Assembly (NCBI GenBank): GCA_964502465.1
Contig: CAZCWX010000076.1
Location: 16,025 to 80,024, forward strand
DNA: 64,000 nucleotides
Origin: an uncultured Enterobacteriaceae bacterium
GTDB taxonomy: Bacteria > Desulfobacterota > Binatia > Bin18
Direction: 5' to 3'
The notes under the pieces: model-generated
Database searches by the model: none
Seen by the model: only the letters and a program-made list of their open reading frames with translations
What the model was told of the DNA's origin: nothing
Shown here: one piece after another, positions 18,250-46,372 of the stretch
How the letters are laid out: every line of letters starts with the position of its first letter
How positions within the stretch are numbered: position 1 is the first letter of the stretch
Position numbers and translations under genes: made by a program

Positions 18250-19536
18250 TCACGTCTTCCGAGCGCCTCTGAACAGCCGTGTATCTCTTTGTCCTTTGTC
18301 AGACCGTGTTCCCTTGTCCCTCCGAGTTTCCTTGCTTTTTGCTTGCGCATGAGGCCGCGATTGAGGTTTGGTGGTCGCAAACAGATACTGGTGCAGAGTG
18401 AGTAACCCACCGAGGTCGGCGGGAAAGGCAGGAAGTATCGGTACTTGGGTAAACGAGGTCTCCGTAGGGAGCGCCCGACGAAAATGTGCGAGTCGCTTTT
18501 CCTCTCCGCGCACCAAGGTTTGGTAAGCGAGAAAATTTTTAGTTAGCCACTGTATCTGCTCGTGATTTTTTGACCTCATATGCAAGATTGTCCGCAGTCG
18601 TGCGGCTAACGTTCCTGCATCCTCGTCCCATGAAGGTTCCGTTCGCCATTCCTCTTGTACTCCGTTCACGACCACACCTTCCAACGGAGCTTTGAGGCGA
18701 TGCAAGTCTGTGAGGAATGCTGCTGTTTCGGCCAGTACCTCCTCTTCTGGGCGGGTAATCAGGACAAAAGCTGTTTCTTTACTCGTTAATAATTGATTGA
18801 CTCGCGTCAGTCGGTGCCCAAAGTCCGCAAGCATTTGCTGCATCGCTGTGAAGAATTCCGAGATGTCGCCCAAGGCTGAAACACCTGTTGCCGCTTCGAT
18901 CTTGCGTAACAGAAAAGCGGCAGTACGGTTCACCGCAGAAAAAGCTACCCAACCGGTTGTCACTGAGGGTTGAATAAACCATTTGCTGACCTGACTATTG
19001 AGAAAGCGCTGCACTCGTTGCGGGGCTTCGAGAAAATCAAGGGCCTGCTTTGTCGGTGGGGTATCGACGACAATCAGATCGTAGATGTCCCGTTGCACTA
19101 GTGTGGCAAGAGTATCAAGAGCCATATACTCGTGTGAACCAGCAAAGGTCCGAGACAATCCCAGGTAAAAACGGTTTGCTAAAATGCGGTTATGGATCTC
19201 CGGTGTTGGTGCGTATCGTCCGACGACTGCATCCCAGGCTCTTTGCTGATCAACAAGCATCGCGGTGAGGGTCCCAGATGGTGAGAGACCATAAGGAGCG
19301 AAAGCCTCTGGGGGCAGTGGATGTTCTTGTTGTCTCGTTTCTTCGAGTCCCAGGCACGTCGCTAATCGTTTAGCCGGGTCAATAGTAAGCACGGCTGTGC
19401 GTTGACCGTGCAGTGCCCCCCAAAGTGCGAGCGCAGCCGCAACCGTCGTTTTTCCTACACCACCACTGCCCACACAGACAACGATGCGATGGCAAGACAC
19501 CAGAGAGGTGAGGTCAGGCGGGGTACGTCTGTTCAT
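18250..19536 (-). CDS. ArsA/Get3-like P-loop ATPase, divergent paralogue 2
   Basis: P-loop GSGGVGKTT and LTIDPAKRL. The ArsA signature is degenerate (VDTPPTKQALDFLEAP). ATG 19536 overlaps the upstream paralogue's stop by 23 nt. Basic C-terminal tail. Confidence 0.8.
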   Translation of the reverse strand: MNRRTPPDLTSLVSCHRIVVCVGSGGVGKTTVAAALALWGALHGQRTAVLTIDPAKRLATCLGLEETRQQEHPLPPEAFAPYGLSPSGTLTAMLVDQQRAWDAVVGRYAPTPEIHNRILANRFYLGLSRTFAGSHEYMALDTLATLVQRDIYDLIVVDTPPTKQALDFLEAPQRVQRFLNSQVSKWFIQPSVTTGWVAFSAVNRTAAFLLRKIEAATGVSALGDISEFFTAMQQMLADFGHRLTRVNQLLTSKETAFVLITRPEEEVLAETAAFLTDLHRLKAPLEGVVVNGVQEEWRTEPSWDEDAGTLAARLRTILHMRSKNHEQIQWLTKNFLAYQTLVRGEEKRLAHFRRALPTETSFTQVPILPAFPADLGGLLTLHQYLFATTKPQSRPHAQAKSKETRRDKGTRSDKGQRDTRLFRGARKT

Positions 19537-20518
19537 CTGACTGTTCCAGCATATAGGAGAGTTGCTCCACTTGAGGAAGGCCAAATTCCTCAGCAAAATA
19601 GAATGGTACGTATACGGTCGGCACCGATAGTGTCTTAAGGCGATGGAGATAGGGAGCCTGAACTTCTTTCAAGGTCGTTTCTGTTTGCGCATGTCTGAGG
19701 ACGTGCTTGGCAAGCTGGCGATCCCGCGATCGAACAGACGCACCTATACGAATCCGCGCTAAGGCAGTGGAGGAAAGAGGGGTATGACGAACACGGTTGA
19801 CGAATAACCGCCCGACAGGCAGGCCTAGATCAGTCCTGAGCTGGTGATACGCTTCGAGAGTTTCGCTCACTGCAAGTTCTTCTGGGACAGTCACCAGATT
19901 CATTACCGTCTTGCTGGGGTCGCTAAAGAGCGCCATAATGCGTTCAGCCTCACGGTGGACCATGCCGCTCCCAAAAGTATCGCGGGCTGCCCGAGGCATG
20001 CGCAGATATTGAAGACTGTGGCCAGTTGCTGGCATATCAACAATAAGGAGGTCCCAACGTGGCTGTAGGGTATCTTTCTCGTGTTTGCGCTCCTCGTACC
20101 AGATTTTTCCCATCGACAGTAATTCCCTGAGTCCTGGCGCTGCCGCCACAAAATACTGGTAGAGTCGGCTCTCAAGAATCATACGCAATAAGCGTTTGAC
20201 TGGAAAAATAAGGCGCAGGTATTCTTCTAGGGCTGTTTGTCCGCTGACTGACAAAACAAAAAGTGTAGGAAAGACTGACTGCGGGTCGTCAGAGGGCTCA
20301 CGGCGGACAGGCACGCCTAGCAACCGGGCGGCGCGCGTATTGCCCTCAAGTTCGATCAGGAGCGTTTTTTTTCCTTGTCGCGAGGCTGCTAAAGCAAGGG
20401 CAGTGGCAAGGATGGTCTTTCCTACTCCACCTTTGCCAACGAGGAAGAGCACACGTTTGGTGAACAATGTGTGAAGAGAAGAAATTGAGCAGCGACGATG
20501 GGGCTGCACCTCTACCAC
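19514..20518 (-). CDS. ArsA/Get3-like P-loop ATPase, paralogue 1
   Basis: P-loop GKGGVGKT and an ArsA-like VDMPATGHSLQYLRMP motif. Candidate GTG 20518 overlaps the fabH stop (GTGGTAG). The ORF track extends to 20557. Confidence 0.85.
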   Translation of the reverse strand: MVEVQPHRRCSISSLHTLFTKRVLFLVGKGGVGKTILATALALAASRQGKKTLLIELEGNTRAARLLGVPVRREPSDDPQSVFPTLFVLSVSGQTALEEYLRLIFPVKRLLRMILESRLYQYFVAAAPGLRELLSMGKIWYEERKHEKDTLQPRWDLLIVDMPATGHSLQYLRMPRAARDTFGSGMVHREAERIMALFSDPSKTVMNLVTVPEELAVSETLEAYHQLRTDLGLPVGRLFVNRVRHTPLSSTALARIRIGASVRSRDRQLAKHVLRHAQTETTLKEVQAPYLHRLKTLSVPTVYVPFYFAEEFGLPQVEQLSYMLEQSDEQTYPA

Positions 20519-21486
20519 CGCACTACCGCAGCTCCCCAGGTCAGACCACCCCCACAAGCGTTTAACACAATAATGTCGTTTTCATGAATCTTGCCGTCAC
20601 GCACGGCTTCATCCAAGGCGATAGGGATAGAAGCTGCTGAGGTATTCCCAAACTGCTGTACGTTGCAATACACCTTCTCCATGCCCAGGTGTAACCGATC
20701 AGCCACCGCTTGGATGATACGAAGATTTGCTTGATGAGGAATCATAAGGTGAACATCAGCAGGGGAAAGTCCGACCCGCTCTAAGGCTCTGCATGCAACA
20801 TCGGAGAGGGCACGGACTGCCACTTTGAACAATTCCGGACCTTTCATTTGGATACCCCATTCTTTTGGATGGAATCCTTCTTGGTCCACAGCTTGACGTT
20901 GCCCTGTGCGGACGTACAACAATTGCCACAGTGCGCCGTTCGATTCGACTACCGTGCTCAGGAGGCCTCTTTCACCGGGTTGGTTGTCCAGCACGACCGC
21001 GCCAGCACCGTCGCCAAAGAGTACACACGTCGTACGATCTTGCCAGTTGACCATCGTGCTCAGTGCATCGGCGCCGACCAAGAGCAGGCGTCCATACTCG
21101 CCACTTTTCATGTAGCTGTGCACAATGGACATGCCATAAACGAACCCCGCGCAGGCCGCATTCACATCAAATGCTGGGATATTCTCTACCCCCAGACGAG
21201 CTTGCAGCAAACAGGCTGTCGAAGGGAAAGCGTAGTCCCCAGATACAGTAGCGACGACAATGGCTTGTAAATCCTGCGCACTCAAGCCAGCTGTATCTAA
21301 GGCTTGTTGACTCGCGACGTGCATCAGGTCCAAGATATCTTCCCCATGCTTCATCACCCGCCGTTCGTGGATTCCAGTCCGGGCGACAATCCAGTCGTGG
21401 TTGGTATTTACCAACTTTTCCAGCTCCGCGTTGGTCAGACGAGTTGCAGGAATGGCGGAGCCAGTGCCGATAATACGTGCGCCCAT
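20512..21486 (-). CDS. fabH: 3-oxoacyl-ACP synthase III
   Basis: Active-site Cys context DVNAACAGFVYG, plus IPHQANLRI and NACGGGLTWGA. ATG 21486 follows GAAAGGG. Confidence 0.95.
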   Translation of the reverse strand: MGARIIGTGSAIPATRLTNAELEKLVNTNHDWIVARTGIHERRVMKHGEDILDLMHVASQQALDTAGLSAQDLQAIVVATVSGDYAFPSTACLLQARLGVENIPAFDVNAACAGFVYGMSIVHSYMKSGEYGRLLLVGADALSTMVNWQDRTTCVLFGDGAGAVVLDNQPGERGLLSTVVESNGALWQLLYVRTGQRQAVDQEGFHPKEWGIQMKGPELFKVAVRALSDVACRALERVGLSPADVHLMIPHQANLRIIQAVADRLHLGMEKVYCNVQQFGNTSAASIPIALDEAVRDGKIHENDIIVLNACGGGLTWGAAVVRW

Positions 21487-23951: not shown

Positions 23952-24045
23952 TGCAAGGACTTAGGCCTGATAGCATCAAAGAAAACGACGCTCTCCTTAG
24001 CCTCTTTCTCATCAGGAAGGGGCTTTTCATTTTCATGATAGGACC

Positions 24046-24798
24046 ATGAATACTGTTAAGGCAGAAACTAATTCTCGCTTGCAAAGTGGGAAAGTCCTCG
24101 TAGTCGGTGTAGGGGGATTGGGCTCTCCCGCGGCTTTGGCACTTGCCGTTGCGGAGGTTGGAGTAATTGGCTTAGTCGATCCCGATACGGTTGAATTATC
24201 TAATCTTCAGCGCCAGATTCTTTATGCCACATCGGACTTAGGAAAATCAAAGGTTGCGTCGGCACGCGAGAAGCTCCTGCGGATTAATCCGCAGGTTGTT
24301 GTGCAGGCTCATCACGAGCGGCTACATCCAGGCAATCTTCTACAGCTTTTTCTGCCATACGACTTCATTATTGATGGGACAGATAGTGTGGCGACCAAGT
24401 TTCTTATTAATGACGGTGCAGTATTGATGGGAAAACCCTTTTCCTATGGAGGTATCGTACAATTTCATGGCCAGACTCTGACTGTGTTGCCAGGACAGAG
24501 TGCCTGTCTTCGCTGCCTTTTTCCTGTTCCTCCAGACCCAGACGAGATCCCAACCTGCCAGGAAAGCGGAATTCTTGGGAGTCTTGCTGGCACCCTAGGG
24601 TTCATGCAAGCAAATGAGGCAGTGAAGTACCTGAAAGGGCAAAATGATCTGCTCACTAACCGCTTGCTGACTTATGAAGCGCAGGCGCTACGCTGGCGAA
24701 TGGTGACTGTCCAACGGAACCCGCGCTGCCCTGTGTGTAGTCCGGTCCCCACTATTACGAGGCTACATCTCGAAGATCCGCAACAATCTGGAAATTAA
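24046..24798 (+). CDS. ThiF/MoeB-family E1-like adenylyltransferase (catalytic motifs intact, N-terminal helix missing)
   Basis: VLVVGVGGLGSPAAL G-loop, DPDTVELSNLQRQ, GTDSVATKFLIND, and Cys pairs CLRC and CPVC. An in-frame TAG at 23998-24000 forbids a longer N-terminus. Confidence 0.9.
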   Translation: MNTVKAETNSRLQSGKVLVVGVGGLGSPAALALAVAEVGVIGLVDPDTVELSNLQRQILYATSDLGKSKVASAREKLLRINPQVVVQAHHERLHPGNLLQLFLPYDFIIDGTDSVATKFLINDGAVLMGKPFSYGGIVQFHGQTLTVLPGQSACLRCLFPVPPDPDEIPTCQESGILGSLAGTLGFMQANEAVKYLKGQNDLLTNRLLTYEAQALRWRMVTVQRNPRCPVCSPVPTITRLHLEDPQQSGN

Positions 24799-24849
24799 TT
24801 GTGCAGCTAGAGGACAGATCTCTAGCTGCTGCATAGCAGAGGAGCCGGT

Positions 24850-26124
24850 ATGAGCAATATTAGTGGATTGACCTGCCGTGAATGTGGGCAGGAGTATCCC
24901 GTGGCCCCGTTACATGTATGTGAGACCTGTTTTGGTCCGCTCGAAGTGGTATACGACTATGACAGTATTCGCCATCGATTGACCCGAGATCTCATTCAAT
25001 CTCGCTCACCTTCAATCTGGCGCTACCGTGAACTGCTGCCAATCAGTGAAGAGCCGAAGATCGGCTTGTATAGCGGTTTTACCCCGTTAGTGAAGGCTGA
25101 TCGGCTTGCCGCACATCTCGGGGTCAAAGATCTGTATGTGAAAGACGACTCGGTGAACCATCCCACCTTCTCGTACAAGGATCGGGTCGTTGCGGTGGCA
25201 ATCTCTAAGGCTGTGGAATTTGGCTTTGACACTGTTTCCTGTGCCTCGACAGGAAACCTGGCAAATTCTGTCTCGGCACACGCTGCACGAGCAGGTCTCC
25301 GTTGTTTTATTTTTATTCCTGCGGACCTCGAGCAGGGGAAAATCATTGGCTCGACGATCTATGGCCCTCGTGCGGTGAGTATTCGTGGCAATTATGATGA
25401 TGTGAATCGCCTTTGCAGTGAGATAGCAGATAAATATGGCTGGGCCTTTGTCAACATCAACGTTCGTCCCTATTACACTGAAGGGGCAAAAACCTATGGG
25501 TTCGAAATTGCTGAACAACTCGGCTGGCAGCTCCCTCAGCACGTCGTCGTCCCTACTGCCGGAGGAACGATACTTCCTAAGATAGCGAAAGCATTTGAAG
25601 AGCTTAAAAAAGTCGGTCTTGTAGACAGTGGGCAGTCCCCAAAGATCTACAGTGCTCAAGCCGCTGGCTGTGCACCTGTGATTCAGGCGCTCCATAAAGG
25701 GACAGACCTGATTGCCCCAGTCAAGCCCAATACCATTGCCAAGTCGATCGCTATTGGCAACCCAGCCGATGGCTACTATGTCCTACGTGCGGTGCGCGAT
25801 TCGGGCGGTTGGGGTGAGGCAGTGACTGACGAGGAAATCATTGCAGGAATTCAGTTGCTCGCCCGGACTGAAGGAATTTTTACTGAACCAGCTGGTGGGA
25901 CAACTGTGGCGGTTACCAAGAAACTCATCGAACAAGGCCGCATTCCGCGAACTGAGTCGATTGTCATCTGTATTACGGGAAATGGTTATAAGACGCTCGA
26001 GGCTGTCGTCAATAACGTTGATTGCCCTCGTCTCATTAATGCCCGCTTGCAGGAGTTCGATGAACTGTATCGCTCTTTCTCTCCGCCTACTTCCTCACTG
26101 GCGACGCAGGATCACCTACACTAA
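24850..26124 (+). CDS. thrC: threonine synthase homologue with N-terminal Zn-ribbon
   Basis: PLP-Lys motif FSYKDR, STGN, and N-terminal CRECG...CETCFG. 424 aa. Confidence 0.9.
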   Translation: MSNISGLTCRECGQEYPVAPLHVCETCFGPLEVVYDYDSIRHRLTRDLIQSRSPSIWRYRELLPISEEPKIGLYSGFTPLVKADRLAAHLGVKDLYVKDDSVNHPTFSYKDRVVAVAISKAVEFGFDTVSCASTGNLANSVSAHAARAGLRCFIFIPADLEQGKIIGSTIYGPRAVSIRGNYDDVNRLCSEIADKYGWAFVNINVRPYYTEGAKTYGFEIAEQLGWQLPQHVVVPTAGGTILPKIAKAFEELKKVGLVDSGQSPKIYSAQAAGCAPVIQALHKGTDLIAPVKPNTIAKSIAIGNPADGYYVLRAVRDSGGWGEAVTDEEIIAGIQLLARTEGIFTEPAGGTTVAVTKKLIEQGRIPRTESIVICITGNGYKTLEAVVNNVDCPRLINARLQEFDELYRSFSPPTSSLATQDHLH

Positions 26125-26255
26125 CGGAGAAAAGGGCTTTCTCAGTCGATTATGTCCAAGAAAGACGAGGCAACGAAGAGCCCCCATAAGGGTGGTTGCC
26201 AGAGTAGAGGAAAATCGCCACAGTAAAAACGATTTCCCGTAAGGAGGTGCTAGGC

Positions 26256-26531
26256 ATGAGTGTTCAGGTGCGGGTGCCGACCCCGCTGCGTCGCTTCACC
26301 GGCGGTGCTGAAGAAGTGACTGTCAACGGAACGACTGTGGCCGCTTTAGTAGATGATTTAGAGAGCAATCATCCTGGTATGAAAGAACGTATCTGCGATG
26401 AGGAAGGGAAAGTTCGTCGTTTTGTCAATATCTTCGTCAATGGTGATGATATCCGCTTTCTCAATAATCTTGACACTCCGGTGAAAGATGGGGACGAGGT
26501 GTCGATTGTTCCTGCTATCGCTGGGGGATAA
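26256..26531 (+). CDS. cysO: CysO-type ubiquitin-fold sulfur carrier protein (MoaD/ThiS superfamily), C-terminal GG
   Basis: 91 aa ending VSIVPAIAGG*. By eye collinear with M. tuberculosis CysO as I remember it (..VPT.LR..TGG.., RFVNI.VNG.D.RF). ATG 26256 lies 8 nt after AAGGAGG. Confidence 0.9.
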   Translation: MSVQVRVPTPLRRFTGGAEEVTVNGTTVAALVDDLESNHPGMKERICDEEGKVRRFVNIFVNGDDIRFLNNLDTPVKDGDEVSIVPAIAGG

Positions 26532-26534
26532 GGG

Positions 26535-27521
26535 ATGTCCCTTTTACCGATACGGGGTGAAGGATTTCCGCCGCCGGAGTCGCAGCGAGTCCCTTCTGTC
26601 TTGCATTTGGTAGGGAATACCCCTCTTCTAAGAATCTCTAAAATAGCCACAGGCCTCTCCCCCCGAGTCCAGGTTTTTACCAAGCTTGAAGGCTTCAATC
26701 CTGGGGGATCTGTAAAAGACCGGCCAGCTCTACAGATGGTAGCAGAAGGACTACATACTGGTTCGCTTGCTCCGGGGAAGACCATTCTCGAATCCACTTC
26801 AGGCAATACCGGAATAGCCTTAGCAATGATTGGTGCTGTGCTCGGCTACCCGGTCGAGCTGGTCATGCCGGCAAATGTCAGCGTGGAACGCAAAAAGATT
26901 ATCGCGGCATATGGGGCGCGCATGATCTTTAGTAATCCCTTGGAAGGGTCAGACGGGGCAATTCGGCTGTGCCGCCAACTTCTTCATGAAACGCCTGATC
27001 GATACTTCAAGCCAGATCAATATTTTAATGAGGCAAACCCACTCGCTCACTACGAAACCACAGGACCAGAGATCTGGTATCAGACCGAGGGGCAAGTGAC
27101 CCACTTCGTTGCAGGCATTGGCACAGGTGGGACGATCATGGGGGCCGGTCGCTACCTTAAGGAGAGGAGCCAACAAGTTCAGGTCATTGCGGTCGAGCCT
27201 GATGATGCCTTTCATGGCCTAGAAGGACTGAAACACATGGCTAGCTCTATTGTCCCTGGGATCTACCATGAAGAAAAACTTGACCGTAAAATTCCAGTTT
27301 CTACGGAAAACGCCTATGATACGGTCTACCGGCTAGGGCGAGAAGAGGGGATACTGGTGGGCCAGTCCTCAGGAGCAGCACTTTGGGCTGCGCTCAAAGT
27401 GGCGCGTGAACTTGAGGAGGGTGTAGTGGTAACCCTATTCCCTGACTTCGGTGATAAATACCTGAGCACCACCCTGTGGGTCGGCTGGAAGGAGTTGAAT
27501 AAAAAAGCCCAAACCGTATAA
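26535..27521 (+). CDS. cysM: CysM-type cysteine synthase (O-phosphoserine/thiocarboxylate-dependent class likely)
   Basis: KLEGFNPGGSVKDR (PLP Lys), TSGNTG and GIGTGGT motifs. Starts 3 nt after the cysO stop. Confidence 0.93.
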   Translation: MSLLPIRGEGFPPPESQRVPSVLHLVGNTPLLRISKIATGLSPRVQVFTKLEGFNPGGSVKDRPALQMVAEGLHTGSLAPGKTILESTSGNTGIALAMIGAVLGYPVELVMPANVSVERKKIIAAYGARMIFSNPLEGSDGAIRLCRQLLHETPDRYFKPDQYFNEANPLAHYETTGPEIWYQTEGQVTHFVAGIGTGGTIMGAGRYLKERSQQVQVIAVEPDDAFHGLEGLKHMASSIVPGIYHEEKLDRKIPVSTENAYDTVYRLGREEGILVGQSSGAALWAALKVARELEEGVVVTLFPDFGDKYLSTTLWVGWKELNKKAQTV

Positions 27522-27535
27522 CGCAGAGGGGAGTC

Positions 27536-27772
27536 ATGAAAGAGAAATTTTATTTGACCTACCCTCCCGCCCTGGTCAAGGAACCTATCATTTACCTTGT
27601 CGGGAAAAAATTTAATGTGATTACGAACATTCGTGGAGCCAACATTTCGAACGATCTCGGCCTCGTTGCGTTGGAAATAGAAGGGCCGCAACTGGAGATT
27701 GACAACGCAGTGTCTTGGCTGCGATCCCAAGGGATCACGGTTGAGCCTATTGAGAAAAATGTCATCGAATGA
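27536..27772 (+). CDS. stand-alone NIL-domain protein
   Basis: 78 aa. FYLTYPPALVKEPIIYLVGKKFNVITNIRGANI....GLVALEIEG resembles the C-terminal NIL domain of MetN-type ABC ATPases. Confidence 0.8.
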   Translation: MKEKFYLTYPPALVKEPIIYLVGKKFNVITNIRGANISNDLGLVALEIEGPQLEIDNAVSWLRSQGITVEPIEKNVIE

Positions 27773-27781
27773 CTGATACTG

Positions 27782-28534
27782 ATGCTTTCTGACCGCCAGA
27801 TTGAGCGTTACAGTCGCCAGATTATCCTCCCTCAGGTCGGTGGCAAGGGCCAAGAAGCCCTCCTGCGCTCCAGCGTCCTGGTGAACGAGAGCGGGCTGTT
27901 GCAGACCTCCAGTTTATTGTACCTTGCTGCGGCTGGAGTGGGGAAAGTTGGGATCATGTCTAAGCTGTGTCCAGATCTTTTTTCTTCCCTTGCTGTTTTT
28001 TCAGATCTGAACCCAGACTGTCAGGTTGTGATGCACGACGAAACAGAGACCGTCGACCTCAAACAATTGGTACAAAAGTACGATATAATACTGTCACCTC
28101 CTGATACTCGACTGCATGCGATCTGTTATGAATTATGTTGTCCTTTTCTCTGTGCGGCGATGACCAGCTCGCATGGCTGGTTATTCTCTTCCCTGGGATA
28201 TCAGCCTGATTGGCCTTGTCTCCACTGTCTCCCTCCGCAGTTTTCTGAGAACCCTATCGATTCCTTTGTCAATGAGCGTTCTCTGCAGCAAGAAAAAGGG
28301 GAAGCGTTCACCAACCTTGCCCCCAATATCTCTGCGAACTTTTTAGCAAGCTGGTCGCCAATGGCCATGTTCTTTGGAGCTTTGCAGGCCACTGAAGCAC
28401 TGAAGCTGCTTCTTGGGCTGAATCAGACATTGGCTAGAAAACTATGGCAGTGCCATTTTACCCCCTTATATTTCTCTGAGCATCTGATAGAAAAGAAGCC
28501 TCAGTGTCCTCTGTGTGGAAAACCCTCCTTTTAG
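27782..28534 (+). CDS. degenerate ThiF/MoeB-like paralogue (predicted adenylation-dead)
   Basis: Keeps the N-terminal IERYSRQIILPQVGGKGQEAL helix, the Cys pairs CLHC and CPLC, and LQATEALKLLLG. The G-loop is VLVNESGLLQTSS, and the DxDxVxxSNLxRQ segment is replaced by MSKLCPDLFSSLAV. Confidence 0.75.
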   Translation: MLSDRQIERYSRQIILPQVGGKGQEALLRSSVLVNESGLLQTSSLLYLAAAGVGKVGIMSKLCPDLFSSLAVFSDLNPDCQVVMHDETETVDLKQLVQKYDIILSPPDTRLHAICYELCCPFLCAAMTSSHGWLFSSLGYQPDWPCLHCLPPQFSENPIDSFVNERSLQQEKGEAFTNLAPNISANFLASWSPMAMFFGALQATEALKLLLGLNQTLARKLWQCHFTPLYFSEHLIEKKPQCPLCGKPSF

Positions 28535-28660
28535 GTTACGCCAAAGAGCTTCGTATTTCCCCAACGTGAAAAGGTACAATAAACTTGTCTGCGCTCTTAT
28601 TGGAGTGTAGAATTTTTGCTCGATGTCTACTTTATCTCAATTTCTCTTCTAAGGAGTTAT

Positions 28661-30349
28661 ATGGAAAAAGGGTTCACTCTTTGGTTTACCGGCATGTCAG
28701 GGGCGGGCAAGTCCACTATCACAAACGCGTTGACCCCTCGATTACAAGATTTAGGCAAACGGGTTGAGGTCCTCGATGGAGACGAGGTCCGTCTGAACCT
28801 CAGTAAAGGCTTAGGCTTTAGCAAAGAGGATCGTGACACGAATATCCGTCGAATCGGTTATGTCGCTCACCTGTTGACACGGAACGGCGCGGTCGCGATC
28901 ACCGCTGCCATTTCTCCTTACCGGGCTATACGCGATGAAGTACGCAATTTTATCGGAAACTTTGTTGAGGTGTACGTCAAGTGTCCACTCGAAACTCTGA
29001 TTGCCCGCGATGTAAAAGGGCTCTACAAGAAAGCCCTCACTGGTGAGATTAAAGAATTCACGGGAATTTCAGATCCTTATGAGGAGCCCCTTCATCCGGA
29101 GGTTGTGGTGGAAACTGACCGTGAGACAGTAGAAGAGAGTGTCGAGAAAATTCTCTCTCGGCTGCAGGAACTGGGGTTGATTGCGCACGCGGTTGGTACG
29201 ATTGCCCCACATGGCGGGGTGCTCGTGAATCGCCTCGTCACCGGAACTCAGCGGGACGCACTTTTGGAAAAAGCCCGCACCCTTCCGACAATCCAACTCG
29301 ACGAACGGGCGCAGAGCGACATAGAGATGATTGCTGTGGGCGCATTTTCGCCATTACGCGGATTTCTTGGGGCTGCCGATTATCACATGGTAGTTGAGAA
29401 CATGCGGTTAATCTCTGGACTTCCGTGGTCAATTCCGATCACCTTGCAAGTTTCACGTGCTCAGGCAGACACACTGAAAGACGGGACAGAGGTGGCGCTG
29501 ATTGATGAACGAAATATGACCCTCGCGATCTTGGAATTAGCCGAGCGCTATCTGCCAGATCAGGAAGAAGAAGTACAACGGGTGTATGGAACGACAGATG
29601 CCGCTCATCCTGGAGTGGCCGCAGTCCTTGGTGGAGGTGAGGTGTATCTTGGGGGAGAGATTCAGGTGTTGAATCGACCCGATACCGTTGCATTTCCTAC
29701 GTATCACCGAGACCCTGCGCAGACGCGCGCATTGTTTCGTGAACGGGGGTGGCAAACGGTGGTCGGATTCCAAACCCGGAACCCCATTCATCGGGCTCAT
29801 GAATATATCACGAAGTGTGCTCTTGAAATCGTCGATGGATTGCTGCTCCACCCGCTTGTCGGGAAGACCAAGAGCGATGACATCCCTGCGGCTGTGCGTA
29901 TGCGCTGTTATGAAGAGCTGCTAGCCCATTATTACCCAACCGAGCGCGTCATGTTGTCTGTGTATCCGGCTGCGATGCGATACGGAGGTCCGCGTGAGGC
30001 AATCTTTCACGCGATTGCCCGCAAGAACTATGGCTGCACCCACTTTATTGTTGGCAGGGATCACGCCGGTGTCGGCAGCTATTATGGGACCTACGACGCG
30101 CAGAAAATCTTCGATGAATTTACTCCAGGAGAACTGGGTATCCAGCCTCTCAAATTTGAGAACGCCTTCTTTTCTCAAGTGACCGGCCAGATGGCCACAG
30201 CCAAAACTGCCCCGGGTGGACCTGAAACTCAAGTCAATCTCTCCGGCACAAAAGTCCGCGAAATGTTAAGCAATGGCGAGCAGCCCCCTGCCGAATTCTC
30301 CCGGCCTGAGGTTGCCGCAGTGCTCATCGGCGCGATGAAACGACGATAG
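28661..30349 (+). CDS. bifunctional adenylylsulfate (APS) kinase / sulfate adenylyltransferase (kinase N-terminal)
   Basis: N-terminal [12 protein letters not shown]-loop (APS kinase). C-terminal [11 protein letters not shown] and GRDHAGVG (ATP sulfurylase). ATG 28661 lies 5 nt after AAGGAG. Confidence 0.93.
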
Positions 30350-42812: not shown

Positions 42813-43613
42813 TTACTGCCGCTGGAGGATACCATCTTCGACCCAACGGATAAGTAGGGCGCCCACCTCTTGTGCTGCGTGTTCGGGGGGTACCAATGAC
42901 TCAACCGTCTCGCAAATCGTTGCGAACGCCTCCCCTGCTTGTACGCATTGAAGTGCGTGTTGCTCGATCGGATCCATGCTGGCCTGGTACACAATAAAAT
43001 TGTCACGCCACACACGCACAGCCGTCTCAACGGGCTGCGCGAGCGTCCAGTCTACTGCCATCTCGTCCCCCAAAATGGACCAGATATCGTGAATCGGCCA
43101 GGCGCTGGTGAGAATCTGACAGGCAGGGATCAAACAAAATTTCAGCTGAGGCCATTCTTCTGGCGGGATGGCCTGTAAATCTGTCATTTGGAGGGGAACA
43201 GCATCACAAGCGTCGAATACCTCCAAGCGTGCCCACTCAAGCCGCGCCAAGTCGGGCAGGAAGGGGAACATTTTCCTGTCTCGGTGCGTACTGAGAAATG
43301 TTGGGAAGGAGCGACCGATATACCGCAAGGAAGGATGAACTGAAGGAGTGCCGGCCAAGTAGACACGGGCGACTGCACGAAAATGTTCAGGACCTAAGGC
43401 GGCAGCGACACGCAGAAAATCCTCACTCAGCGCATCAAGGATCCGGGCGCAGTACATTTGCGCGTAAATATCGATGCGCTCTTCAGCTCCAAGCGGCCCC
43501 CGACCCTGGACAAGCTGGACGAAATCTGGATCAAAACCATACTTACTAGCTGCAGGCGGTGGGGAAGCAATGGCCTGAAAAAATTTTAATTGTAATTCAC
43601 GCAGAGTGAGCAT
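42813..43613 (-). CDS. bufC: DUF2063-family partner protein of the MNIO (BufC/HvfC-like)
   Basis: N-terminus LRELQLKFFQAI....ERIDIYAQMYCARILDALSEDF is typical of DUF2063. Start overlaps the DUF692 stop by 17 nt. Confidence 0.85.
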   Translation of the reverse strand: MLTLRELQLKFFQAIASPPPAASKYGFDPDFVQLVQGRGPLGAEERIDIYAQMYCARILDALSEDFLRVAAALGPEHFRAVARVYLAGTPSVHPSLRYIGRSFPTFLSTHRDRKMFPFLPDLARLEWARLEVFDACDAVPLQMTDLQAIPPEEWPQLKFCLIPACQILTSAWPIHDIWSILGDEMAVDWTLAQPVETAVRVWRDNFIVYQASMDPIEQHALQCVQAGEAFATICETVESLVPPEHAAQEVGALLIRWVEDGILQRQ

Positions 43614-44445
43614 AGTTCATAGTGAGAGATTGGGATGCAAACGCGCGCGCACGTTCGGCTTCGGCGCAGAGCACCTCGAACTCGGGGACCTGATCATCCC
43701 ACTCAATCAGGGTTGAGACTTGCCCGAAGCGGCGCACTGCCAGGCAGTAGAGTTCCCACACTGGCTCAATGACAAGACCATCATGCGTATCTAACAGGTA
43801 TGTCCCTTTGTTACTGTGCCCCGCCAGATGGATCTGGCCAATGCGATCTAGTGGCAGTGCCGTTAGGTATGTTTCTGGCGCAAAGCCGTGATTCCTCGCA
43901 CTGACATAGACATTATTCACGTCGAGGAGAATACCACAGTCAGCCTGTTCGGCAATTTCTGCAAGGAAAACCCACTCGGGCATTGTCGAGTGCGAGAAGG
44001 TCAGATAGCTGGAGACATTTTCGACCAAGATCTGGCGACCGAGCCAGTCCTGCACTTGCCCTATCCGTTCAACAACGTGCCTGAGGGCTTCCTCAGTATA
44101 TGGCAGTGGCAGCAAGTCGTGCGCATAATGTCCACCGACACTCCCCCAACACAGATGATCTGATATCCAGGCAGGTTCGAAGCGCTCCACCAATACGCGC
44201 AGATGACACAGATAGGCTTCATTCAAGGGATCGGTCGAACCTAAAGAGAGGGAAACCCCGTGCAAAACCAGAGGGGCGAGTGAGCGGGCTCGTTCGAGCA
44301 CTGCCAGTGGCCGCCCACCACGGATCATGAAGTTTTCGGAGATCGCTTCAAACCAGTCTACCTGCGCCGTCCCCTCCCAGATACGAGGAAAATGTTTGGT
44401 GCGCAACCCGACGCCATGACCGAGGTAGGGAACTGTACAAGCCAT
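43597..44445 (-). CDS. bufB: DUF692/MbnB-family multinuclear non-haem iron oxidase (BufB/HvfB-like)
   Basis: GVGLRTKHF...VDWFEAISENF...LHGVSLSLGS...ISDHLCW...ENVSSY...LLDVNNVY...IHLAGH are canonical DUF692 (TIM-barrel) blocks. Confidence 0.92.
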   Translation of the reverse strand: MACTVPYLGHGVGLRTKHFPRIWEGTAQVDWFEAISENFMIRGGRPLAVLERARSLAPLVLHGVSLSLGSTDPLNEAYLCHLRVLVERFEPAWISDHLCWGSVGGHYAHDLLPLPYTEEALRHVVERIGQVQDWLGRQILVENVSSYLTFSHSTMPEWVFLAEIAEQADCGILLDVNNVYVSARNHGFAPETYLTALPLDRIGQIHLAGHSNKGTYLLDTHDGLVIEPVWELYCLAVRRFGQVSTLIEWDDQVPEFEVLCAEAERARAFASQSLTMNYAHSA

Positions 44446-44527
44446 ATAGGCGACTGCTTACTTTCTTGAACCAAACGAAACCGAGACCCCGGATGGTGGA
44501 GACCGAGGCCTCGTCTTCTCCTGGCTG

Positions 44528-44794
44528 TTATTGCTTTGCTTCGACGATCTTCCCGCCCTTTGCCTGGCATTCCTCGGCACTCGTTTGCACCCAGCCTTGC
44601 CCTTTACAAGCGTTTTGTCCTTTGCACGAGTTGCCCGCTCCAGCGCAGGCTCCGTGACCCTTACACTCATTAATACCGGCACAGTGGACTGGTTCAGAAC
44701 CGGCTTTATCAGTCGCCCGTGCCACGAGGCTACCGCCCACGATCAGGCCTGCTACCGCGCTTGCAATCATCACCCCTTTTCCGAATGTGTTCAT
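44528..44794 (-). CDS. bufA: Sec-exported Cys-rich RiPP precursor (BufA/HvfA-like, 6 Cys)
   Basis: 88 aa. GGAGG lies 9 nt upstream. Signal peptide MNTFGKGVMIASAVAGLIVGGSLVARA. Core is HCAGINECKGHGACAGAGNSCKGQNACKGQGW...EECQAKGGKI. Confidence 0.85.
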   Translation of the reverse strand: MNTFGKGVMIASAVAGLIVGGSLVARATDKAGSEPVHCAGINECKGHGACAGAGNSCKGQNACKGQGWVQTSAEECQAKGGKIVEAKQ

Positions 44795-44837
44795 TGTCCT
44801 ACCTCCTCTAGGTTATGTGAATGAGTGGATTCCTTTT

Positions 44838-45097: not shown

Positions 45098-46372
45098 TTA
45101 GAATGGAAATTCTGCTGTGGCAAATTGCTCACTGTCGAGGACCAGCACCTTTACAGTCAGGCCTTTGGGCAATAACGGGAGTTCAGCTGGGCCAATGATG
45201 AGTCCTTCTCCCAGGGAGAGAGAACTGAGCACCCCTGAACTCTGGCTGCCAGTCGAGACAACTTCATAGCCCCCGTCTCCCCGGGCCAGTCGACAGCGAA
45301 CAAACTCAGTTAGACCTTTCGCTTTGGGAATATCAGCCCCCACTCGTGCCGCAATCACTGGTAGGAAGAGTTTTATGTGACCCATCATACGGTACAGAGC
45401 CGGGCGGACATACAGATAAAAACACACCAGCGCAGACACTGGGTTTCCTGGCAAACCAAAGTATGGACGCTCGCGGAGCAAACCAAACGTCAGGGGTTTA
45501 CCTGGACGCTGGGCGACTTGCCAAAACAAGCGACGGCTACCTAATTCGTCCATCGCCGCCTTCACGAAATCAAAGTCACCAACCGACACTCCACCAGTCG
45601 AGAGCACAACATCGTGACGGACTGCCTCGGCAAGCGCTGTACGGATTTCACTTTGTGTGTCACGGGCGATTTCCAGAATGACTGGTGCTCCGCCGGCTTC
45701 GCGTACCGCTGCAGCTAAAGTGTAAGCATTTGAATTGACAATCTGGCTAGGATGCAGGGTCTCATCGACTTCTACCAACTCATTGCCAGTGCTGAGAATA
45801 GCCACGCGTGGACGCTGATGCACCAGGACTAAGCTGCGGCCGACCGAAGCAAGTAGCCCTATAGCCGCCGGCCGTATCACACGGCCCTTTTCCAGCACTA
45901 GCTGACCCCGCTGGATATCTTCACCGCTGGCGCGAATATGTGTCCCCACACGCTCTTGGCGGTTGATCCAGACGCGCCCGTCTTCTTCTTCGCTGTCTTC
46001 GACACGGATAACCGTATCAGCCCCATGAGGGATGAGCGCGCCAGTCATAATTTTGCTTGCCGTGCCTGAGGTGACCGCTTGCGTGGGGACACTGCCTGCC
46101 TGGATCACTTCGAGAAGAGTCAGCCCAATCGGTTGCTCGGGGCTGGCACCATGGAGGTCATCCCAACGCACCGCGTACCCGTCCATCGCCGAGTTGGCAA
46201 ACGGAGGTACCTCGCGCTCTGATCGTACTTCTTCGGCGAGTATCCGTCCCACCCCTTGCAATAACCCAATACGTTCTCCAGCTAAGGGAGAAACGGTCTC
46301 CAGAATCATTGCCAATGCATCGTGTACAGCAATCATACCAGTAGAGTAGGCGAACTGAACCTTGATCGTCAA
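45098..46372 (-). CDS. moeA: molybdopterin molybdenumtransferase MoeA
   Basis: Four-domain MoeA layout. SAMDGYAV, TGALIP.GADTV and LSTGGVSVGDFD motifs. Confidence 0.93.
   Translation of the reverse strand: MTIKVQFAYSTGMIAVHDALAMILETVSPLAGERIGLLQGVGRILAEEVRSEREVPPFANSAMDGYAVRWDDLHGASPEQPIGLTLLEVIQAGSVPTQAVTSGTASKIMTGALIPHGADTVIRVEDSEEEDGRVWINRQERVGTHIRASGEDIQRGQLVLEKGRVIRPAAIGLLASVGRSLVLVHQRPRVAILSTGNELVEVDETLHPSQIVNSNAYTLAAAVREAGGAPVILEIARDTQSEIRTALAEAVRHDVVLSTGGVSVGDFDFVKAAMDELGSRRLFWQVAQRPGKPLTFGLLRERPYFGLPGNPVSALVCFYLYVRPALYRMMGHIKLFLPVIAARVGADIPKAKGLTEFVRCRLARGDGGYEVVSTGSQSSGVLSSLSLGEGLIIGPAELPLLPKGLTVKVLVLDSEQFATAEFPF

Follow-up and report, generated by a model that had tools for sequence, protein, structure and literature searches.

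Complementary defects in two paired ThiF/MoeB paralogs suggest an asymmetric, two-gene sulfur-carrier E1 in bacterial sulfate assimilation

Introduction

The E1-like enzymes MoeB and ThiF of Escherichia coli form symmetric homodimers with binding of ATP and the carrier protein at both sites (PMC12355090), and an N-terminal arginine of the partner subunit completes each ATP site (PMC12355090; PMC13139853). Such a dimer has two composite ATP sites, in each of which the body of a subunit is joined by the N-terminal helix of its partner. Reviews and primary papers present MoeB and ThiF as symmetric homodimers and asymmetry as a hallmark of eukaryotic E1 enzymes, with BilD as a recent bacterial exception. 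Here, we analyze a stretch of 64,000 nucleotides (nt) from contig CAZCWX010000076.1 (hereafter, the window), in which the only ThiF-family open reading frames (ORFs) are two paralogs of 250 amino acids each, P1 (24046-24798, plus strand) and P2 (27782-28534, plus strand). P1 has a complete nucleotide site and lacks the N-terminal arginine helix, P2 has the helix and a dead nucleotide site, and the two forms are strictly paired across genomes. We consider it fairly likely that P1 and P2 are two subunits of one sulfur-carrier-activating E1 with a single working site, an arrangement that a preliminary description of the window had proposed as an obligate heterodimer.

The described systems closest to P1 and P2 in sequence and fold are MoeB-MoaD and ThiF-ThiS of E. 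coli, which share with them a length of about 250 amino acids, the zinc site, and the type of carrier. In contrast to MoeB and ThiF, no single polypeptide of the P1/P2 pair holds the full set of elements; both proteins fall into PF00899, neither alone appears to be a complete ThiF/MoeB enzyme, and their sequences argue against two live sites. The eukaryotic SUMO and NEDD8 E1s, the heterodimers SAE1(AOS1)-UBA2 and NAE1(APPBP1)-UBA3, consist, as P1/P2 would, of two ThiF-fold subunits with one live ATP site; their inactive subunit has an N-terminal xYDRQ-type helix and a degenerate Gly loop, as does P2, and their active subunit starts just before the Gly loop, as does P1. Unlike these enzymes, P1 has neither the SCCH catalytic-cysteine insertion nor a ubiquitin-fold domain, there is no ubiquitin-conjugating enzyme (E2), P2 keeps the zinc CxxC pairs, the predicted output is a protein thiocarboxylate for amino acids rather than conjugation, and the origin of the pair would be independent, from duplication of a bacterial ThiF. 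A dead module with the arginine helix and a live module without it are found together in the P1/P2 sequences of 43 loci, and none of the features of a conjugating E1 (a Cys-domain insertion in the crossover loop, an E2 partner, or a ubiquitin-fold domain) is found with them; judged by sequence, P1/P2 would work like an asymmetric E1 adenylation core and not like a canonical conjugating E1.

Two further systems combine an active and a defective half. In the bacterial E1 BilD, an active and an inactive adenylation domain pair as a pseudo-dimer within one chain, and a key arginine, Arg9, comes from the inactive half (PMC10557695); the single-chain layout is also that of the natural fusion proteins described below. 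BilD has a CYS domain and acts in phage defense together with an E2, a ubiquitin-like protein (Ubl), and a deubiquitinase (DUB), whereas P1 and P2 are the products of two genes in housekeeping sulfur assimilation; they are accompanied by neither an E2 nor a DUB, and a scan of the operon and of 48 window ORFs (minimum length, 128 amino acids, apart from a carrier of 94 and a NIL protein of 78) gave no match to an E2-like or JAB family. Yeast Tcd1 and Tcd2, both of the ThiF family, form a heterodimer whose defects complement each other: the Arg59 finger of Tcd1 serves the Tcd2 site, Tcd1 is without a second ATP-coordinating arginine, Tcd2 gives no finger, and mutation of the finger has a small effect (PMC13139853). 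In contrast to P1/P2, this enzyme is eukaryotic, belongs to the TcdA subfamily, and acts as a dehydratase forming cyclic N6-threonylcarbamoyladenosine (ct6A) in tRNA rather than on a Ubl or carrier. According to a 2023 paper, all known bacterial E1-like proteins besides BilD are homodimeric, and our literature searches, in which subscription journals were poorly covered, turned up no account of an asymmetric sulfur-carrier E1 encoded by two genes, so that an earlier description is possible. The idea that the arrangement is unprecedented among bacterial sulfur-carrier E1s was therefore not contradicted, while the asymmetry as such is already known from BilD and Tcd1-Tcd2.

Results and Discussion

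P1 has a complete nucleotide site and no arginine-finger helix

The product of P1 (MNTVKAETNSRLQSGKVLVVGVGGLGS...DPDTVELSNLQRQ) scores 237 bits against PF00899 (cut-off, 28.1) and is collinear with ThiF over its 250 amino acids, with no insertion in the crossover loop. The nucleotide site is complete in this one polypeptide, with the Gly loop G21-S27, D45, R56, K69, and D113 at the positions of MoeB G41, D62, R73, K86, and D130; N53, the zinc cysteines 154, 157, 228, and 231 (CLRC 154-157 and CPVC 228-231), and a crossover-loop cysteine, Cys171, are present as well. The catalytic columns are invariant in an alignment of 16 P1/P2 pairs.

What is absent is the RYxRQ helix, as just 20 residues precede the Gly loop. 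The alignment of P1 begins at residue 22 of E. coli ThiF (1e-42) and at residue 28 of MoeB, which means that the first helix, with ThiF Arg11 or MoeB Arg14, is missing; residue 11 of P1 aligns to residue 14 of human SAE2, an active subunit in which the helix is likewise missing. A TAG codon (23998-24000, plus strand) lies 16 codons 5' of the start codon, in frame with the ATG at 24046 and with no ATG, GTG, or TTG between them, which rules out an N-terminal extension. Within the 240 nt before the Gly loop, no RYxRQ-like peptide is encoded in any frame, a result that holds for the window and for 45 related loci. A frameshift or an alternative start restoring the helix was considered and rejected, given the in-frame TAG and the absence of the helix from every frame. 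The helix is likewise absent from all 120 of the best P1 homologs (65 to 100% identity; about 255 amino acids), in which the Gly loop usually starts at residue 21, compared with about residue 37 in intact relatives.

P2 keeps the helix and has lost the nucleotide site

The P2 sequence (MLSDRQIERYSRQIILPQVGGKGQEALL...VLVNESGLLQTS...MSKLCPDLFSSLAV) still matches PF00899, with a score of 71.5 bits against the same cut-off, and presents the mirror image. Its residues 1 to 28 (MLSDRQIERYSRQIILPQVGGKGQEALL; 27782-27865) correspond to the arginine-finger helix, which is intact (ERYSRQIILPQVGGKGQ) and includes ERYSRQ with Arg12, the equivalent of MoeB Arg14. The Gly-rich nucleotide loop is dead: residues 34 to 43 (27881-27910) read VNESGLLQTS, where the consensus of the P2 family is VLVNGxGPLQ. 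P2 aligns to MoeB in three pieces (4-61, 94-185, and 194-249), and the intervening MoeB residues 62 to 93, the DxDxVxxSNLxRQ...K segment with Asp62, Arg73, and Lys86, are replaced by about 13 unrelated residues, a short variable linker at P2 residues 60 to 72 (MSKLCPDLFSSLA; 27959-27997). The crossover-loop cysteine is gone; both zinc CxxC pairs (CLHC 146-149 and CPLC 242-245) and LQATEALKLLLG remain. Alignment to E. coli MoeB and ThiF thus confirmed, in both paralogs, the residue losses named in the preliminary description, which had credited P1 with every catalytic element and both Cys pairs, had taken the upstream TAG to exclude its helix, and had seen in P2 a protein that keeps the helix and both Cys pairs, has NESGLLQTS as its nucleotide loop, and lacks the DxDxVxxSNLxRQ segment.

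An AlphaFold2 (AF2) model of P2 built with 116 homologs has a mean predicted local distance difference test score (pLDDT) of 84 and a predicted template modeling score (pTM) of 0.81. In Foldseek comparisons, its template modeling (TM) scores are 0.71 to 0.76 to ThiF/MoeB and 0.65 to SAE1. Because this confident model superposes on ThiF/MoeB, P2 is predicted to be a folded pseudoenzyme and not debris.

The P2 family consists of proteins of 220 to 265 amino acids with 40 to 85% identity; the dead loop and the deletion are found in all members, and a GxGGxG loop is found in none. Across 116 sequences, mean column identity is 41%, and the invariant columns concentrate in the N-terminal helix (L2, Q6, Y10, S11, R12, Q13, I14, I15, L16, G20, G21, G23, and Q24) and the zinc cysteines. 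Because the P2 helix is favored both by word seeding and by the patterns used to scan genomes (RYSRQIILP and Q[VI]GGKGQE), phmmer was run against 1.84 billion representatives with P2 residues 30 to 250 alone. Among the best 150 matches of this body-only query, 50 were degenerate. The RYxRQ helix starts every full-length degenerate match (37/37), nearly all of them beginning MLxDxQIERYSRQIILP, and the other 13 degenerate matches, which lack it, are fragments or dubious gene models. The contigs of P0262 and P0288 (1.3 to 1.6 kb) are uninformative as to gene context.

A new catalytic site in P2, formed by Cys80, His112, and Cys115, was considered and rejected, as intact relatives share the NPDC motif and the wider degenerate clade has not retained the His/Cys pair. 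At about residues 160 to 190 (28259-28351), P2 has an insertion of about 20 to 30 residues (…VNERSLQQEKGEAFTNLAPNISANFLAS…) before the QATEA helix, with pLDDT values of 46 to 56; it is found in the closest relatives (P0002, P0004, and P0006) and in no other family member. A different type of degenerate E1-like protein is represented by P0259 (540 amino acids), in which two rhodanese domains are fused to a partly degenerate ThiF domain that keeps the helix as RYSRH, has the loop GSGGHAP, and lacks the NLxRQ segment.

P2 might instead be a decaying gene remnant, or the features described might be artifacts of sequencing, assembly, or gene calling. Its faster evolution (mean pairwise identity of 0.50, compared with 0.69 for P1) and the lineage-specific, poorly modeled insertion fit with decay. 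Against both possibilities stand intact ORFs in more than 100 sequence clusters from several phyla, with 24 invariant columns, the shared start architecture of P1 in 120 gene calls made independently, and identical P1 and P2 proteins on independent assemblies. The conservation data effectively refute them, and we assign them a negligible probability.

The two defective forms are strictly paired across genomes

With the P2-helix patterns, 80 loci were retrieved, one genome per species, a set that is consequently biased toward the helix. In all 43 informative loci, those long enough to cover both genes, one ThiS lies between a live ThiF that lacks the helix and a dead ThiF that has it, in the order BamD, P1 type, [ThrC-like], ThiS, [CysM], [NIL], P2 type, sulfate-activation genes; 5 further loci, clipped by contig ends, are consistent with this pairing. 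The remaining 32 have intact ThiF genes only, the helix-less form being found in none of them (0/32), and a search starting from P1 homologs on long contigs recovered the same pair in 3/3 cases. As the loci are phylogenetically related, the counts of 43/43, 3/3, and 0/32 do not represent independent events; the pairing nevertheless survives extensive sequence divergence and operon remodeling. The co-occurrence of truncated and degenerate forms, which had been suggested as a check, is therefore strict, and the complementary defects are not a local accident.

The hosts are mostly Candidatus Binatia, with Methylomirabilota, Thermodesulfobacteriota, and "Deltaproteobacteria" metagenome-assembled genomes (MAGs) also represented, and the same pairing is seen in a divergent high-GC clade (L052, L062, and L084). 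The constant core comprises P1, the carrier, and P2, and the ThrC-like, CysM, and NIL genes are variable: the ThrC-like gene is present in only part of the related loci, and the NIL gene, being absent from many pair-bearing loci, lies outside the core. A CysC-Sat gene follows P2 in most related loci. In the high-GC clade (L083, 1549-2814; L084, 3851-5065), the gene after the dead ThiF encodes a conserved protein of about 405 to 420 amino acids with a weak Radical_SAM match, and the gene beyond it encodes a Na+/sulfate symporter; both of these genes are absent from the window.

Strict pairing also bears on the possibility that P1 or P2 associates with another, intact ThiF/MoeB protein encoded elsewhere in the genome, such as a MoaD-activating enzyme. 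The window includes a MoeA gene (45098-46372, minus strand), which indicates that the organism makes molybdenum cofactor and, therefore, needs a MoaD-activating enzyme; with no third ThiF-family gene in the window, the alternatives are that such an enzyme is encoded outside it or that P1/P2 activates additional carriers as well. The MoeA gene thus makes another E1-like enzyme outside the window probable. P1 and P2 are, however, the sole ThiF-family ORFs in 64 kb and are always co-operonic around one carrier gene, and we regard a partner from outside the locus as improbable. The pairwise divergences of P1 and P2 also track each other (r = 0.95), which would speak against an outside partner; shared phylogeny alone gives the same result, and this correlation was not used as evidence of pairing.

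One composite site may have been lost from a heterodimer

In a P1/P2 heterodimer, the composite site formed by the body of P2 and the helix of P1 would have been discarded, and the site formed by the body of P1 and the helix of P2 (Arg9/Arg12) would have been kept. Loss of the P2 site makes a P1 helix useless, and conversely, so that the two defects would amount to a single loss, an account that is coherent only where P1 and P2 pair together. A comparable asymmetry is fixed in SAE1-UBA2 and NAE1-UBA3, in single-chain UBA1 and BilD, and in Tcd1-Tcd2, and the donation of a helix or arginine by the inactive half in BilD and Tcd1-Tcd2 supports this reading. P2 would then be the equivalent of an inactive adenylation domain, a structural half-dimer donating its helix in trans, and it may also still dock the carrier via the retained zinc module.

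A related arrangement exists in a single chain. The body-only search returned a natural fusion protein, P0258 (448 amino acids), and a second one, P0388 (449 amino acids; 89% identical), is encoded on a separate metagenome contig. In the fusion, the RERYSRQ helix and a nonfunctional loop, GGDSTAH, belong to the N-terminal domain; the C-terminal domain is active and helix-less, with the start ...TAARLLVVGAGGLGC..., and intact ThiF proteins split on the fusion in such a way that their helix aligns to its N terminus and the remainder to its C-terminal half. An AF2 model of the fusion (pLDDT, 74.7; pTM, 0.72) gave query TM scores of 0.57 to 0.66 to UBA7, UBA1, and UBA6 over about 600 columns and of 0.47 to single-domain ThiF; the match to UBA-type enzymes over both domains suggests that the two halves are placed roughly like an inactive/active adenylation pseudo-dimer. 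MAFFT aligned the P2-family rows onto the C-terminal half of the fusion, and the N half was, hence, modeled from two sequences. On its contig (L081, 3038-4868), P0388 has a PP-loop ATPase with an SGGLDS motif downstream and a DUF362/ferredoxin protein and a histidine kinase upstream; these neighbors suggest a role in tRNA thiolation or other sulfur transfer for a single-chain asymmetric E1.

The heterodimer is favored because the truncated and degenerate forms strictly co-occur, because RYSRQ is near-invariant in P2 even when the query is free of the helix, because the helix is universally missing from P1 homologs, and because of both the natural fusion of a degenerate with an active domain and the layout with two intact paralogs in Nitrospirota (see below). 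Several points weigh against it. Association of P1 with P2 is itself something that we infer from sequence, and the locus set was gathered with helix-derived patterns. The arginine finger (MoeB Arg14 or ThiF Arg11) is reported to be catalytically nonessential and is absent in E. coli TcdA (PMC13139853); the finger alone would therefore not make a heterodimer obligate, and a P1 homodimer could work. The fusion is rare (two clusters at 90% identity), its N-terminal helix is modeled with pLDDT values below 50, its context differs in that it adjoins the PP-loop ATPase and not a CysM/MetM operon, and it may be an independent invention. P2, finally, differs from the inactive domains of eukaryotic E1s in having retained the zinc module and may serve a separate function.

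These last points lead to an alternative in which P1 acts by itself as a homodimeric E1 that needs no finger, and P2, as a homodimer or a monomer, is an independent pseudoenzyme that contributes to the pathway in some other way. It might be a carrier chaperone or adaptor handing the thiocarboxylate to CysM/MetM, a sulfur-relay scaffold, or a regulator. The reported dispensability of the finger in MoeB and ThiF and its absence from TcdA (PMC13139853) are consistent with a self-sufficient P1. In P2, both CxxC pairs and the C-terminal hairpin are retained and the ThiF fold is modeled with confidence, in contrast to eukaryotic inactive domains; this would agree with a function of its own, as would the lack of a rhodanese or JAMM protein among the scanned window ORFs, which leaves pathway functions to be filled. 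Left unexplained by this account, however, are the near-invariance in P2 of the finger helix as opposed to the carrier-binding face, the constant joint occurrence of P1 helix loss and P2 ATP-site loss, and the fusion of the two domain types. We therefore consider it unlikely, although it deserves to be kept in mind. Of the original proposal, the heterodimer with P2 as helix donor stands as the best reading, on the strength of co-occurrence, RYSRQ conservation, and the fusion; the qualifier "obligate" goes beyond what a finger reported as dispensable supports.

The operon points to a sulfur-carrier pathway for amino acid synthesis

P1 and P2 lie in a co-directional string of genes on the plus strand (24046-30349) with intergenic gaps of 3 to 122 nt. 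P1 is followed by a gene for a threonine-synthase-like (ThrC-like), pyridoxal 5'-phosphate (PLP)-dependent enzyme with an N-terminal zinc ribbon (24850-26124; PALP, 237 bits, plus a small Cys-rich N-terminal match), by a gene for a sulfur-carrier protein of the ThiS/MoaD/CysO type of 94 amino acids (26247-26531; PF02597, 69 bits), whose translation ends ...VPAIAGG with the Gly-Gly directly before the stop codon, by a gene for a CysM-like PLP cysteine synthase (26535-27521; PALP, 241 bits), and by a gene for a stand-alone NIL-domain protein of 78 amino acids (27536-27772; PF09383, 47 bits). Downstream of P2 lies a gene for a fusion of adenosine 5'-phosphosulfate (APS) kinase and ATP sulfurylase, CysC-Sat (28616-30349; PF01583, PF14306, and PF01747), which places the operon in sulfate assimilation. 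The string is flanked by BamD upstream and by an extracytoplasmic function (ECF) sigma/anti-sigma pair downstream on the opposite strand, as assigned by the Pfam families of a matching contig. Among named relatives, Candidatus Binatia, Thermodesulfobacteriota, and "Deltaproteobacteria" MAGs come closest.

A Gly-Gly carrier gene adjoining a gene for a CysM-type PLP enzyme, as found here, is the mark of a CysO-type pathway. The mycobacterial CysO-CysM-Mec-MoeZ and the Streptomyces MetO-MetM systems similarly combine a Gly-Gly ThiS-like carrier with CysM-type and ThrC-like enzymes in a sulfate assimilation context. MoeZ, unlike P1 and P2, has a single full-length ThiF domain and a rhodanese domain, and its pathway includes the JAMM hydrolase Mec, which the window operon lacks; no rhodanese domain (PF00581) was found in P1 or P2, and none of the 48 scanned window ORFs belongs to a rhodanese or JAB/JAMM family, members of which may lie elsewhere in the genome. 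Neither a sulfur donor of the rhodanese type, as in MoeZ, nor a hydrolase to release the amino acid is therefore visible among these ORFs. The MetM/MetO homocysteine pathway, with a ThrC-like enzyme, a carrier thiocarboxylate, and O-phosphohomoserine, is described in GapMind 2026, and the product of 24850-26124, judged by gene adjacency and its PALP match, is probably a MetM-type, carrier-thiocarboxylate-dependent homocysteine synthase.

From this context, a reaction sequence for the heterodimer can be proposed. ATP-Mg would be bound in P1, the C-terminal Gly-Gly of the carrier (26247-26531) would be adenylated, and the acyl-adenylate would be converted to a thiocarboxylate with reduced sulfur from the Sat/CysC branch. 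The thiocarboxylate would then supply the CysM-like enzyme for cysteine and the MetM-like enzyme for homocysteine.

Nitrospirota may preserve a precursor with two intact paralogs

Seven Nitrospirota loci (L056, L057, L068, L075, L076, L078, and L080) have the order ThiF-a, ThrC-like, ThiS, NIL, ThiF-b, with both paralogs intact. The upstream paralog a scores 319 to 343 bits on the P1 profile, compared with 290 to 300 bits for b, and shares with P1 the signatures KFLIND and LTDRLLTYD, which together indicate that P1 is orthologous to paralog a. Orthology of P2 to paralog b may be indicated by gene position and by RYSRQ versus RYSRH, and a comparison of profile scores between P2 and b was mixed (higher in 4/7 loci), which weakens the case for the heterodimer. 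In other lineages, the cluster (ThrC-like, ThiS, ThiF, NIL) includes just one ThiF, which is intact.

A plausible route would lead from duplication to heterodimer formation and then to the loss of one composite site, and the two live Nitrospirota paralogs at one carrier may already heterodimerize. We give about even chances to the broader proposition that an asymmetric two-subunit E1 arose independently in bacterial housekeeping sulfur assimilation by ThiF duplication (both copies being still intact in Nitrospirota), heterodimer formation, loss of one composite site in Binatia and relatives, and occasional fusion into a chain like UBA1 or BilD. If this is true, these loci would provide living intermediates for the presumed route by which eukaryotic E1s came to their inactive/active asymmetry.

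Confirmation of the P1/P2 heterodimer would reveal a widespread two-gene asymmetric E1 in primary sulfur metabolism and would imply that duplicated ThiF genes give rise to asymmetry easily and more than once. With two proteins of 250 amino acids and one carrier of 94, the system would be small and tractable enough to address what the inactive half contributes (finger, stability, or docking), whether half-of-sites loss is neutral or adaptive, and in what order duplication, degeneration, and fusion occur. Both genes are currently labeled "molybdopterin/thiamine biosynthesis adenylyltransferase," with the consequence that active E1s are miscounted when pathways are reconstructed from Binatia-like MAGs.

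Other genes in the window

Two observations concern genes away from the operon. A gene for an MbnB/TglH/ChrH (DUF692) enzyme (43597-44445, minus strand; 360 bits) adjoins one for a DUF2063 protein (42813-43613, minus strand), and together they represent the usual two-gene pair for modification of ribosomally synthesized and posttranslationally modified peptides (RiPPs); small ORFs just upstream of this pair, at 44358-44570 (minus strand) and 44531-44824 (plus strand), could encode a precursor peptide. Two adjoining genes for P-loop ATPases of the ArsA/Get3 type (448 and 347 amino acids; 18250-20557, minus strand) lie beside FabH and FabF.

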